A stretch of DNA of 64,000 nt, taken from NCBI GenBank assembly GCA_963754655.1, contig CAVWGN010000001.1:1056001-1120000 (forward strand). The letters are read 5' to 3'. A program made the translations under genes and the position numbers. Below are positions 25,502 to 55,481 of the stretch, one piece after another (position 1 is the stretch's first letter; each line of letters opens with the position of its first letter). The notes under the pieces are model-generated. The model ran no database searches and was not told the DNA's origin. It worked only from the letters and a program-made list of their open reading frames with translations. Source of the DNA: an uncultured Chlamydiae bacterium. GTDB lineage: Bacteria; Chlamydiota; Chlamydiia; Chlamydiales; Parachlamydiaceae.

Positions 25502-25937
25502 CTGAAGTTTTGCAAAATTAATTAATTCAAGTTGAGACAAGTCTTAAAGCGTTTATTATATCTGAATTTTGGCATGGTTCAATTGAAGGTAACTTATTTA
25601 TGCCGTCCTTTCAGGACTCGATGTCTTTTTGATAGAACCCAGGCCTCCGCTTCGCTGCGACCTGGGCTGTAACATGACGGCCCTTCAGGCCTTAACAAGA
25701 GATGTTTAAGTCCCTCTTCTATAGTCCCTAAATCATCTTTTTGTTAAGGCCTGAAGGGCCGTCATGTTACAGCCCAGGTCGCAGCGAAGCGGAGGCCTGG
25801 GTTCTATCAAAAAGACATCGAGTCCTGAAAGGACGGCATAAATAAGTTACCTTCAATTGAACCATGCCAAAATTCAGATATAATAAACGCTTTAAGACTT
25901 GTCTCAACTTGAATTAATTAATTTTGCAAAACTTCAG
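25502..25937. mobile_element. 436-bp palindromic (fold-back) element with a 6-bp target-site duplication
   Basis: About 197-bp perfect inverted arms around a roughly 42-bp centre; TTTTAA at 25496-25501 and 25938-25943; removing it restores a leader like those of the paralogues. Confidence 0.9.
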
Positions 25938-26231
25938 TTTTAATTAAATTTATAGTTTTATTCATAAATTTATAATATTTAATTTTATAGTTATAAAAAT
26001 ACGTTATATTAATAGCAACTCATTTATTTTTGATGATATATTAAAAAATTGCAAATTTCCCTTTTAATTGCCAACCTTTTTCAATTTGAGAAGATCGATA
26101 ACCTCTCTTTAATTTGTCAAATATTTTCTGATTTGTTATTCATTCTTTCATCTAAATATGTTTCATCTAAATATCCTGAAAAAGTGAAGAAAAAAATTGG
26201 ATAGTTGTAAATTAATGCAAGGCGATAGGCA

Positions 26232-28904
26232 ATGACATTTCAAGATTTAAAAAATGCTTTATCTATGCGTTTATTTGGTTCATCGACCCATAGTCAGGAT
26301 GCGAATCAGCAGTCTATCTCCTCTTTGCTTGCTTCCTCACGAATGCCTTTATCTGAAGTCTTGAAGAGTTTACAAACGTCAGAAAAAGGACTTAACCAAA
26401 GAGACATTTATCAACGGCTTAATCAATATGGTTTAAATGAGATTGCACATGAGAAGCCTCCCACTTGGTATTCTTTGCTGCTCGCAAATTTTGCAAATCC
26501 TTTTGTCATCTTATTAATTGTGCTTGGGATGATTTCCTTTTTTCTTGGAGAAGAAGATGCTGTTGTGATCATTATTTGCATGGTTCTTCTCAGTGTCATC
26601 ATGCGATTTATTCAAGAATATCGCTCTAATTTGGCAGCTGAAAAGCTCAAAGCTCTCGTTAGCACGAAAGCAACCGTGTTGCGCTGGCTGGAGGCAAACG
26701 TCGAGTCTAAGCCGTATGAAATGGATGTTAAGTATTTGGTTCCTGGCGATGTCATCCATCTTTCTGCGGGAGATCTTGTGCCTGCAGATATTCGTTTAAT
26801 AGCCGCTAAAGATGTGTTTGTCAGTCAAAGTGCTCTCACAGGAGAGTCCATGCCAGTTGAAAAAGAGGAAGTTTCTAAAGGCAAAGAGAACTTGACCAAT
26901 CCAATTGAAATGCCCAATTTATGTTTTATGGGGACAAATGTGCTAAACGGAACGGCAATAGCTGTGGTTCTTAAAACGGGTAATCAAACCTATTTTGGTT
27001 CAATGGCAAAAAGCTTGACAGGCCGACGTTCTCTAACCAGTTTTGACATAGGGGTCAATAAAGTCAGCTGGCTATTGATTCAATTTATGTTTGTGATGGT
27101 TCCTCTTGTCTTTTTGATTAATGTTTTGACTAAAGGCGATTGGTTTGAAGCTTTGCTTTTTTCTTTATCTATTGCAGTCGGGCTGACTCCCGAAATGCTG
27201 CCCATGATTGTCACTGCCAATTTAGCGCGCGGAGCGATCAATATGTCTCGCTCTAAAGTCATTGTCAAACGTTTAAATGCCATCCAAAATTTTGGTGCGA
27301 TGAATATTCTTTGCACAGATAAAACAGGGACACTGACCCAAGATCGAGTCATTTTAGAAAAATATCTCAGCGCTGATAATCAGGAAAGCGAGGAAGTCCT
27401 CAGCTATGGTTTTTTAAATAGTTATTATCAAACAGGTTTAAAAAATCTTTTGGATCTTGCTGTCTTAAATCACCGCCATTTAGAAACAGACATGCAATTG
27501 GATCGCAATTACCGAAAGATAGATGAAATTCCTTTCGACTTTAATCGACGCCGAATGTCTATTGTCCTTCAAAAGCTTCCGCAACAATATCTTTTAATTT
27601 GCAAAGGAGCATTTGATGAAACGCTCTCTATTTGCCAGACAGCTAAGCTTAATGGATCCCTTACCCCTTTAACTGAAGAGATCAAGAAAAAATTAAAAAA
27701 TATAGAAATAGATTTAAATGAAGATGGACTACGTGTTTTGGCAGTGGCTTATAAAGACCTTCAAAATGGAGTTAAAAAAGACTATCGCCCTCAAGATGAA
27801 AATGAACTGACGTTTTTGGGATACTTAGCCTTTCTGGATCCTCCTAAGCATTCAGCAATGAAGGCTTTAGAGCTTTTAAAAGAATATAATGTGCAAGTCA
27901 AAGTTTTAACGGGCGATAATGAAATCGTTACCCAACGCATTTGCAAATGGGTGAATTTGTCCATTGAAGGCGCTCTAACAGGGCCTCAAATCGATCAAAT
28001 GGATGCATGGGAATTGAAAAATAGTGTGGATAAAACAACCATCTTTACGAAGTTAACACCTTTGCAGAAAACGCGAGTGATTTCTGCTCTTAAAGCAAAT
28101 GGTCATACTGTAGGTTTTCTGGGAGACGGAATTAATGATGCGCCCGCTCTTCGGGAAGCTGATGTTGGAATTTCAGTGGATACGGCTGTTGATATTGCAA
28201 AGGAAGCTGCCGATATTATCATGCTTGAAAAAAGTTTGCTGTTTTTGGGCGATGGTGTGCTTGAAGGACGCCGAACATTTGGCAATATTATCAAATATAT
28301 TAAAATGGCGGCAAGTTCCAATTTTGGCAATGTCTTTAGCATGTTAGGTGCAAGTGCTCTATTACCCTTTTTACCTATGCTGCCTGTTCAATTATTAACA
28401 CAAAATTTGCTTTATGATTTTTCGCAAACAGCCATTCCATTTGATCATGTGGACCGAGATTTTCTTTTGCAACCGCGCAAATGGGATCCTTATGGCATTG
28501 CCAAGTTTATGATTTTTATTGGGCCTATTAGCTCAATATTTGATTATGTGACATTTGCTGTTATGTGGTTCGTTTTTGGTGCTAACACAATTGCACATCA
28601 GGCCTTATTTCAATCTGGATGGTTCATTGAAGGTTTGCTTTCTCAAACACTTATCGTGCATATGATTAGAACAAGGCATATTCCTTTTATTCAAAGTATT
28701 GCCTCTTTGCCTCTCTTACTGACAACCTTCTTTGTGATGGCTATTGGACTCTTAATTCCTTTTACCTTTGTGGGACATAGTATCGGCCTTGTCTCACTAT
28801 CAGGTGATTATTTTTATTGGCTGATTACCATCCTATTATCTTATTGCGTCTTAACTCAGTTAGTGAAGATTTGGTTTATTAAACGCTTTAATTATTGGCT
28901 CTAA
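26232..28904 (+). CDS. mgtA: Magnesium-translocating P-type ATPase
   Basis: LTGESMPVEK, AVGLTPEMLP, CTDKTGTLTQD, GDGINDAPAL, ASSNFGNVFS, FQSGWFIEGLLSQ. Confidence 0.95.
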   Translation: MTFQDLKNALSMRLFGSSTHSQDANQQSISSLLASSRMPLSEVLKSLQTSEKGLNQRDIYQRLNQYGLNEIAHEKPPTWYSLLLANFANPFVILLIVLGMISFFLGEEDAVVIIICMVLLSVIMRFIQEYRSNLAAEKLKALVSTKATVLRWLEANVESKPYEMDVKYLVPGDVIHLSAGDLVPADIRLIAAKDVFVSQSALTGESMPVEKEEVSKGKENLTNPIEMPNLCFMGTNVLNGTAIAVVLKTGNQTYFGSMAKSLTGRRSLTSFDIGVNKVSWLLIQFMFVMVPLVFLINVLTKGDWFEALLFSLSIAVGLTPEMLPMIVTANLARGAINMSRSKVIVKRLNAIQNFGAMNILCTDKTGTLTQDRVILEKYLSADNQESEEVLSYGFLNSYYQTGLKNLLDLAVLNHRHLETDMQLDRNYRKIDEIPFDFNRRRMSIVLQKLPQQYLLICKGAFDETLSICQTAKLNGSLTPLTEEIKKKLKNIEIDLNEDGLRVLAVAYKDLQNGVKKDYRPQDENELTFLGYLAFLDPPKHSAMKALELLKEYNVQVKVLTGDNEIVTQRICKWVNLSIEGALTGPQIDQMDAWELKNSVDKTTIFTKLTPLQKTRVISALKANGHTVGFLGDGINDAPALREADVGISVDTAVDIAKEAADIIMLEKSLLFLGDGVLEGRRTFGNIIKYIKMAASSNFGNVFSMLGASALLPFLPMLPVQLLTQNLLYDFSQTAIPFDHVDRDFLLQPRKWDPYGIAKFMIFIGPISSIFDYVTFAVMWFVFGANTIAHQALFQSGWFIEGLLSQTLIVHMIRTRHIPFIQSIASLPLLLTTFFVMAIGLLIPFTFVGHSIGLVSLSGDYFYWLITILLSYCVLTQLVKIWFIKRFNYWL

Positions 28905-54681: not shown

Positions 54682-54917
54682 AATTATCCTTTTAGTCTGA
54701 GGTTGACAAAAGATTGTCAAAGCCCTCACATGATTAAAAATTAACAATATAGAGTTCGTTAATCAAGAAAAATTTTGAATAAAAAAGAAGAAATTGGAAA
54801 ACCCATTAGGATCTGTCTGTAAATTGATCATATAGGGTTTAAAAAAATAAATTATGAATTGTTCATAATTTTAAAATTGTTTAAGATTTGTTGTTAATCT
54901 TATTCAATTCTTATAGT

Positions 54918-55481
54918 TAGTATTCAACCACATGAGCTTTTGCCTATTGGGACCGTTTCAAAGCCCCGGGGTTGAATTGGCGTAAGTGGGTCAATATTAG
55001 CAATATGGACCCAGTTACGCCAATTCAACCCGGGACTAGGGTGTTCATTTTGTGCAAAAAATGAGCTTATTTTTTACAATAATTGGCATAGTTAAATTGA
55101 AGGTCGCATATTTATGCCGTCCTTTCAGGACTCGATGTCTTTTTGATAGAACCCAGGCCTCCGCTTCGCTGCGACCTGCTGTAACATAACGGCCCTTCAG
55201 GCCTTAACAAAAAGATGATTTAGGGACTATAGAAGAGGGACTTAAACATCTCTTGTTAAGGCCTGAAGGGCCGTTATGTTACAGCCCAGGTCGCAGCGAA
55301 GCGGAGGCCTGGGTTCTATCAAAAAGACATCGAGTCCTGAAAGGACGGCATAAATATGCGACCTTCAATTTAACTATGCCAATTATTGTAAAAAATAAGC
55401 TCATTTTTTGCACAAAATGAACACCCTAGTCCCGGGGCTTTGAAGAGTCTAAATACACAAAACTAATGTGGTTGAGTACTA
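54918..55481. mobile_element. Palindromic element copy 3, nested in further inverted-repeat layers
   Basis: Near-perfect arms 55029-55210 / 55253-55436; outer imperfect arms TAGTATTCAACCAC..TTCAAAGCC / GGCTTTGAA..GTGGTTGAGTACTA; extra hairpin at 54966-55034; centre inverted relative to copies 1 and 2. Confidence 0.9.

Follow-up and report, generated by a model that had tools for sequence, protein, structure and literature searches.

The DNA considered here is a window of 64,000 nucleotides (G000:C1:1056001-1120000, positions 1,056,001 to 1,120,000 of contig CAVWGN010000001.1 in assembly GCA_963754655.1) from an uncultured chlamydia of the family Parachlamydiaceae, the genome of which measures 3.16 Mb in two contigs. 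Three long palindromes lie in this window, and the present analysis concerns their structure, the repeat family to which they belong and an IS200-like Y1 transposase gene that is linked to that family. All three had been proposed in an initial annotation and all were recovered by direct reading of the sequence and by repeat search; each is intergenic. The arms of copy 1 (25500-25698/25741-25939) are 199 nt long, those of copy 2 (36821-36963/37006-37148) 143 nt and those of copy 3 (55029-55178/55287-55436) 150 nt, and within these limits each pair is 100% complementary. The three differences between copies that had been annotated are all mirrored in the partner arm. The symmetry, described as perfect, does not hold throughout copy 3, in which the left arm is 2 bases shorter than the right (CCTGCTG vs CCTGGGCTG). 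The 42-nt centre (GAGATG...TCTTT) is the same in the three window copies, reversed in copy 3, and contains AGTCCCT twice. The annotated core TTGGCAT...ATGCCAA exists, but it is only part of the unit, which extends to 436 bp in copy 1 and 392 bp in copy 3. On each side of the centre lies an arm module of approximately 100 nt with three small hairpins (ATGCCGTCCTTTCAGGAC; CCCAGGCC-loop-GACCTGGG; GGCCCTTCAGGCC), and outside the core there is a further inverted-repeat layer, or shell, of type A or type B. The features are as follows.

25496..25501, no strand: copy 1 left target-site duplication, TTTTAA; the identical 6-mer adjoins both element ends
25502..25937, no strand: copy 1, full-length element of 436 bp; outer shell of type B, with terminal inverted repeat CTGAAGTTTTGCAAAATTAATT...
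25596..25696, + strand: copy 1 left three-hairpin module, L-form, Acido-Lenti-1-like (model R1, 106 bits; G000:C1:1081596-1081696)
25699..25740, + strand: copy 1 42-nt centre (spacer), + orientation
25743..25843, - strand: copy 1 right three-hairpin module
25938..25943, no strand: copy 1 right target-site duplication, TTTTAA
36787..37152, no strand: copy 2, element with type A shell
36861..36961, + strand: copy 2 left module
36964..37005, + strand: copy 2 centre, + orientation
37008..37108, - strand: copy 2 right module
54971..55029, no strand: small hairpin repeat GTTGAATTGGCGTAAGTGGGTC...GACCCAGTTACGCCAATTCAAC of another repeat family (modules E/E'), in the CCCGGG motif beside copy 3
55037..55428, no strand: copy 3, full-length type A element of 392 bp, TA-GGGTGTTCATTTTG...CAAAATGAACACCC-TA, between CCCGGG-type motifs
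55110..55208, + strand: copy 3 left module, lacking 2 bases that are present in the partner arm
55211..55252, - strand: copy 3 centre, reversed
55255..55355, - strand: copy 3 right module (Rfam RF01687, 35.2 bits at 55259-55313; gathering score 37)

In copy 2 the left outer arm is kept with one base altered at its end, and the right outer arm stops after approximately 17 nt. As single-stranded DNA, copy 1 folds at -257.5 kcal/mol compared with -42.6 +/- 4.8 kcal/mol for shuffled sequences, so that its foldback is far beyond chance. A consensus scan of copy 1 detected no promoter in the centre and no terminator-like site anywhere in the copy; outward-facing promoter-like sites, which are consensus matches only, occurred solely at the core/shell B junctions. 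Matches of the palindromes to Rfam microRNA precursors were rejected, since all fell under the gathering scores and any long hairpin gives such matches.

The family extends over the whole genome. A BLAST search with the 302-bp core returned 527 pieces, corresponding to 181 loci that cover 48.7 kb or 1.5% of the genome, 54 of them being of canonical length. None of the 178 chromosomal loci was located inside a stop-to-stop open reading frame (ORF) of at least 200 codons, while such ORFs occupy 74.6% of the chromosome. Among 85 paired cores, 73 carry the type A shell, a 45-nt outer arm per side that produces a whole element of 392 bp, exemplified by copy 3; 7 have the type B shell, a different outer arm of 69 nt that produces an element of 436 bp as in copy 1; and 5 are shell-less, a shell-less core being defined as GGCATGG...CCATGCC. 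Perfect 6-bp direct repeats were observed at the ends of 4 of 6 type B elements (TTTTAA in copy 1), and the shell-less cores display 8-bp repeats with at least 7 of 8 bases matching in 5 of the 7 examined. The flanks of type A elements consist of CCCWGGG-type motifs, which also join other repeat modules. With terminal inverted repeats, small size and no coding capacity, the elements resemble miniature inverted-repeat transposable elements (MITEs), and a duplication of constant length accompanies type B (6 bp) and the shell-less cores (8 bp). No shell without its doublet was found in the genome, and in the three window copies the core/shell junctions are mirror images rather than direct repeats. 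In three genomes of the same genus (G001-G003), the coding flanks of the window copies reach only 65-73% identity and gene order is not conserved across the copies, so that no empty site was readable.

Two insertion sequences have come into contact with the family. The repeat pair of 1.77 kb at C1:1307006-1308774 represents a type B element, the centre of which is occupied by an IS256-like insertion sequence. This sequence, of 1322 bp with one ORF of 400 aa, is present in 8 copies of 100% identity (e.g. G000:C1:1307230-1308553), of which 2 lie inside 42-nt centres of the palindrome family and most others inside other repeat families. A second insertion sequence of 1846 bp, with ends TGGGATGAGAAAAC, occurs in 10 copies (e.g. 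G000:C1:1781574-1783419) with 9-bp duplications at GCCCWGGGC-like sites, and one copy is inserted inside the CCCAGGCC stem of a module (C1:2444907). It is a candidate mobiliser of type A elements, yet T(A)GGG(A)TG is all that its terminal repeat has in common with the shell. The surroundings of the elements are themselves composite. At least seven short repeat modules, of 15 to 153 copies each, are joined mutually and to type A elements at CCCNGGG motifs, forming a mosaic throughout the genome (for example in the flanks of copy 3 at 54960-55036 and 55429-55470) that recalls bacterial interspersed mosaic elements. Moreover, two 32-bp mini-hairpins (G000:C1:1334335-1334366 and 1366231-1366262) consist of both extreme ends of the type A shell joined to each other, which may represent deletion footprints or an ancestral hairpin.

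The arm module is not confined to this genome. A portion of the arm is shared, at 70-88% identity and with differing spacers between the arms, by further genera within the family and by additional families within the order. When 19 of these arms are aligned, all three hairpins are seen, and hairpins 1 and 3 display compensatory changes. The whole 46-position model of Rfam RF01687 (Acido-Lenti-1) aligns to the outer two hairpins of the module and the linker. In the window copies this match scores 35.2-36.4 bits against a gathering score of 37; among 148 matches listed genome-wide, 11 reach at least 37 bits and most score 36.4. Scores in relatives are 37.5-40 bits, and relatives and other phyla together span 37.5-46.7 bits. 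In alignment A3, comprising 147 module matches, 96.5% of cells are paired compared with 77.4% in shuffles and 17 of 17 pairs change on both sides, although the alignment was fitted to the structure of the model and these counts lean towards it. Changes in the hairpins were two-sided in 326 cases and one-sided (wobble) in 14, and such rarity of one-sided changes fits DNA hairpins better than RNA. Acido-Lenti-1 was listed as a likely RNA by Weinberg et al. 2010 (PMC2864571) and is classed among the small RNAs without a known function, in contrast to its appearance here as a DNA repeat at the ends of a transposase unit. A literature search found no publication linking Acido-Lenti-1 to a transposase. 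In genus G020, the two arms of the doublets (L135-L144) differ in their linker segments, indicating that near-identity of the arms is a feature of the family in the present genome and not of the module generally.

A transposase gene is located between copies of the module. The genome contains 9 matches to PF01797 (Y1_Tnp), 7 of them intact: one typical IS200-type gene and six diverged paralogues, which are mutually 37-49% identical apart from one duplicate pair at 98%. One of the diverged genes (C1:395750-396268) is single copy, its nearest paralogue being 49% identical, and bears inverted modules on both sides, at 89% identity on the 3' side and 75-78% on the 5' side. Its flanks match 219 to 334 places in the genome. 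The protein scores 64-66 bits against NF033573 (IS200/IS605; cut-off 55) and possesses an HUH motif and a Y motif of the form Y---Q--HH, with D63, H64, H66, Y124, Q128, H131 and H132 invariant; a conserved C-terminal end, ...YDEKYxWD, was noted as well. Orthologues in G015, G010 and G016, which represent three other genera, are flanked in the same manner, with modules abutting the gene. Across 41 genomes, which are related and hence not independent, the module and the Y1 gene were found together in 15, the module alone in 3 (these being 68-79% complete), the Y1 gene alone in 3 and neither in 20. The five further intact paralogues of the same subclass (G000:C1:2939279-2939758, 2542085-2542555, 2544215-2544685, 2802159-2802632 and 2429353-2429802) each have their own repeated flanks, with approximately 20 to 100 matches in the genome, so the genome may hold several separate Y1/repeat systems.

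The association also extends far beyond the chlamydiae. A covariance model constructed from chlamydial arms was run on 80 loci of many phyla that encode relatives of the Y1 protein, and a module match was obtained in 65. Within 150 nt of the gene the match was upstream on the - strand in 51 loci, downstream on the + strand in 46 and on both sides in 37; median gaps between module and gene across phyla were 10 nt upstream and 6 nt downstream. RF01687 itself reached its gathering score in 12 of the 20 cross-phylum loci tested, with 26 matches. Furthermore, derivatives of the Y1 unit that have lost the gene can be recognized in the present genome. In at least six R-spacer-L doublets the spacer consists of remnants of the 3' end of the Y1 gene, and gene-less units of 422 bp comprise two outward-facing modules around such remnants, with inverted ends of approximately 155 nt that start CCCACATTCC and a median pairwise identity of 97.8%. 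Abutting direct repeats of 5-6 bp were present at 5 of 8 gene-less Y1 units compared with 2 of 56 control pairings. At the Y1 units of other phyla (46 loci), which are older and single copy, abutting repeats were no longer than in the control, a lack of signal that may come from age or from imprecise boundaries. The pattern of IS200/IS605 elements, namely asymmetric end hairpins on one strand, no duplication and a multi-copy gene, was not observed. In contrast, the ends here are inverted copies of one module, the gene is single copy, and gene-less derivatives with duplications of approximately 6 bp exist. To our knowledge, HUH/Y1 transposition as known for IS200/IS605 elements generates no target-site duplication. 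Such duplications would not be anticipated from an HUH mechanism at units for which a Y1 enzyme is the sole known gene product.

Regarding the symmetry of the arms, it had been annotated that one arm is copied from the other at or after each insertion. For 49 canonical copies, three aberrant copies having been dropped beforehand, the two arms of one copy differ on average at 1.14 of 129 positions compared with 3.34 +/- 0.13 for random pairing, and 0 of 20000 permutations fell as low as the observed mean, so the proposed co-variation is borne out. Left arms do not group with left arms: same-side and opposite-side distances between copies are both 0.0408. Among arm variants, 26 distinct ones are symmetric in at least one copy, 23 occur in one arm only and 10 are seen both ways. 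Variant columns private to one copy are symmetric in 11 cases and restricted to one arm in 18; the symmetric columns correspond to approximately six events, among which are a deletion of 1 base and a multi-base block, each shared by the two arms of a single copy. One locus forms a perfect higher-order palindrome, in which an 82-bp unit of centre plus hairpin is mirrored in both arms, the centre being a variant. Independent matching mutations cannot yield these numbers, and one arm must have templated the other. Copying at every insertion is, however, more than the data allow: the core arms are perfect in only 24 of 52 canonical copies, private columns are more often one-armed than symmetric, and chimeric arm pairs exist. 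In several copies the arms bear haplotypes of different subfamilies, pointing to exchange between copies as well. Compensatory changes are reported to be common in the hairpins of REPINs, doublets formed by repetitive extragenic palindromic (REP) elements (Bertels & Rainey 2011, PMC3116915), and template switching at quasipalindromes is presented as an established bacterial process in E. coli (PMC7202029). That account of quasipalindrome mutagenesis, in which one arm of an imperfect inverted repeat templates the other towards a perfect palindrome, matches the mechanism proposed for the present arms; the E. coli case concerns short reporters, whereas arms of 130-200 nt in a different organism are involved here (PMC7202029).

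The centre is less constant than its identity in the three window copies implied. Among 46 canonical copies with substitution-only centres 25 are exact, and 3 further copies have insertions or deletions. A fuzzy search allowing up to 6 mismatches detected 171 centres, divided 84 to 87 between the two strands, and their orientation shows no bias with respect to replichore (28/21 vs 26/29, Fisher p = 0.33). Differences from the consensus per site are 0.018 in the centre, 0.007 in the module and 0.044 in the outer 27 nt of the core. The suggestion that the centre is a functional recognition or priming site is thus not supported, given that the centre varies more than the modules do, that relatives have different spacers in its position, and that it is amplified in tandem in some loci and interrupted by an insertion sequence in two. 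An exact 26-mer of the centre had 0 matches in genome contigs of other species. In several loci the centre stands in tandem with short hairpins at periods of 82 and 123 bp. The ends of the centre are imperfect mirror images of each other (TTAACAAGAGATG... and, reversed, TTAACAAAAAGATG...) and are similar to the stretch after hairpin 3, both in the Y1 unit of the present genome and in the G020 doublets. Both properties lead us to read the centre as two fused extension stubs.

Taken together, we consider it probable that the palindromes form a gene-less, nested family of mobile elements akin to both REPINs and MITEs, with ends of the Y1 unit as arms, additional shells around them and templated correction between the arms. 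The module would be the end sequence of a small unit coding solely for an IS200-like Y1/HUH single-stranded DNA transposase. Two modules joined by their tails, each retaining a small stub of outer extension, would constitute a REPIN-like doublet, the 42-nt centre being the spacer made of the fused stubs. This doublet would then have become enclosed by further inverted-repeat shells, the ends of which bear target-site duplications, and those duplications suggest that the present expansion proceeds through insertions that make staggered cuts in the target, by the Y1 enzyme or other transposases. Identity of the arms would be maintained by replication template switching at quasi-palindromes or by mismatch correction inside the folded hairpin, templating being frequent but not tied to every insertion, and selection for intact modules would act in addition.

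Several observations weigh against this reading. Beside the Y1 gene the 5' arm has degenerated, so that the gene itself may be in decay. The protein falls outside the curated RAYT (REP-associated tyrosine transposase) family, scoring 22-25 bits against NF047646 where the cut-off is 80. The duplications argue against simple mobilisation of the outer layers by the Y1 enzyme, and no autonomous element sharing the terminal repeats of type A, type B or the core ends was found in the genome. A duplication at type A elements is indistinguishable from the palindromy of the flanks: informative cases comprise 6 direct and 4 inverted, and 9-mers matching in at least 8 bases are direct in 13 of 54 copies and inverted in 24 of 54. 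The relatedness of the genomes compared for co-occurrence, the fitting of the module alignment to its model and the read contigs mentioned below, none of which spans a palindrome, belong here as well.

Other explanations were weighed against the same evidence. The elements could be ordinary foldback MITEs mobilised in trans by transposases of the DDE type, with the Y1 modules as passive passengers that settled in the single-stranded centre of hairpin MITEs already present. The constant duplication length within each shell type speaks for this, as do the insertion sequences that have been active very recently in the genome (1846 bp, 10 copies; 1322 bp and IS256-like, 8 identical copies) and the location of type A elements at a CCCWGGG motif also targeted by the 1846-bp sequence. 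Against it, neither a shell that lacks its doublet nor an insertion sequence with the terminal repeats of the shells was found, and core and shell meet in mirror images rather than in direct repeats; this explanation is rather unlikely. A system purely of the REPIN/RAYT type, in which the Y1 enzyme alone excises and inserts the palindromes as single-stranded hairpins and the shells are lineage-specific extensions of the ends, would account well for the strong linkage of module and Y1 gene, for the Y1 gene being the sole gene ever found between these ends, and for the recurrence of the terminus of the gene-less Y1 unit, CCCACATTC, beside a G020 doublet. We regard it as unlikely, however, because the duplications, which measure 6, 8 or probably 9 bp depending on the shell, are not expected from known HUH Y1 chemistry, their unequal lengths suggest different enzymes, and at the 46 Y1 loci of other phyla abutting repeats did not exceed the control. 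A further proposal, unlikely to the same extent, retains the duplications and assigns them to the enzyme itself: the small Y1/HUH transposase of this subclass would move units with long inverted repeats and generate duplications of approximately 6 bp, and the palindromes would symmetrise themselves, including mirror-copying outward into the flank. We know of no HUH Y1 enzyme with such a mode of transposition. If such symmetrising occurs, a doublet landing near one end of another transposon would yield a new MITE with two perfect ends, which would explain the layered shells.

That the modules are structured small RNAs, terminators or regulatory hairpins, with the palindromes serving a function at the RNA level, is very improbable. 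The classing of the motif as a likely RNA by Weinberg et al. 2010 (PMC2864571), the strong covariation and the intergenic position of every locus agree with such a function. The placing of modules beside Y1 genes in either orientation, a copy number in the hundreds together with duplications, the scarcity of wobble (14 one-sided vs 326 two-sided changes) and the lack of any terminator-like site in the scan of copy 1 do not. Least probable of all is that the perfect symmetry of the arms is an artefact of assembly or polishing. Reads of one arm may map to the other, and no contig from two soil-metagenome runs bridges a palindrome. Against an artefact, arm mismatches are retained in about half of the copies, the symmetric variants include insertions or deletions and the mirrored 82-bp insertion, and palindromic doublets are also present in independent assemblies of relatives. 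In the Logan contigs of the two runs, the word depth of which sums all organisms, arm bins have a depth of 139-246 compared with 0.7-5.6 in covered unique bins; in the short-read contigs of run X1, possibly the source sample, the depth of arm words is far above that of the flanks.

The likeness to REPINs, already proposed in the initial annotation together with the larger and layered build, proved apt, and a cognate Y1 transposase gene can now be connected with it. In common with REPIN/RAYT systems as characterized by Bertels & Rainey (PMC3116915), inverted doublets of a hairpin repeat surround a spacer, there are hundreds of intergenic copies and tandem clusters, a single-copy Y1 gene is flanked by the same repeat, and compensatory changes occur in the hairpins. 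Unlike the 20-40-nt REP of that description (PMC3116915), the repeat unit here is approximately 100 nt long with three hairpins. Elements of 300-440 bp, extra shells, target-site duplications and a protein that fails the curated RAYT model are further differences. The TIRtrons and TIRYTs outlined by Di Nocera et al. 2013 (PMC3733652) are similar in that Y1 genes lie within long terminal inverted repeats that also form dispersed families, often as dimers. Most TIRYTs are assigned to subclass 2.1, with a helix-turn-helix tail and a GGGGWSAS motif in their repeats (Quentin et al. 2018, PMC6006769); GGGGWSAS is absent from the module here on reading its sequence. The signature Y---Q--HH is that of TnpA-Y1 subclass 1.2 in the same classification (Quentin, Siguier, Chandler & Fichant 2018, PMC6006769), with which the present protein shares Y and HUH motifs, small size, a conserved C-terminal stretch and low copy number. 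That subclass is described there as generally without the typical terminal IS200 secondary structures and as occurring mostly in Cyanobacteria and Bacteroidetes (PMC6006769), in contrast to the structured inverted ends and the relatives in many phyla found here. A literature search found no MITE- or REP-type repeats described in Parachlamydia, Protochlamydia or Neochlamydia, and the supplements of PMC6006769 and PMC3733652, which tabulate members and their flanking structures, may contain relatives of the gene.

Two other repeat regions were observed in the window. A large inverted repeat at 45866-48631, with 997-nt arms that are 89% complementary, is unrelated to the palindrome family and consists of two divergently transcribed paralogues, the products of which measure 808 and 753 aa, are rich in repeats and show a periodicity of ...AEAEFKKALALP.... 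At 14200-16333, overlapping inverted repeats of 77-88% complementarity are clustered, which suggests that this region is internally repetitive.

Correia elements and other bacterial MITEs are small and non-coding, with terminal inverted repeats, target-site duplications and high copy number. Compared with these, the inverted repeats of the present family span nearly the whole element, are nested in layers and hold end modules of the Y1 type. The results give a concrete identity to a repeat that occupies 1.5% of the genome of a relative of the chlamydiae. They also supply evidence on Acido-Lenti-1, an orphan "small RNA" of Rfam that has been without a known function since 2010; the evidence says that it is the DNA end of a widespread, little-studied subclass of Y1 transposases. 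The target-site duplications around units that code for nothing but a Y1 enzyme are unexpected and directly testable. Furthermore, the family offers natural material on how REPIN-like hairpin elements move and how long palindromes keep their arms identical.

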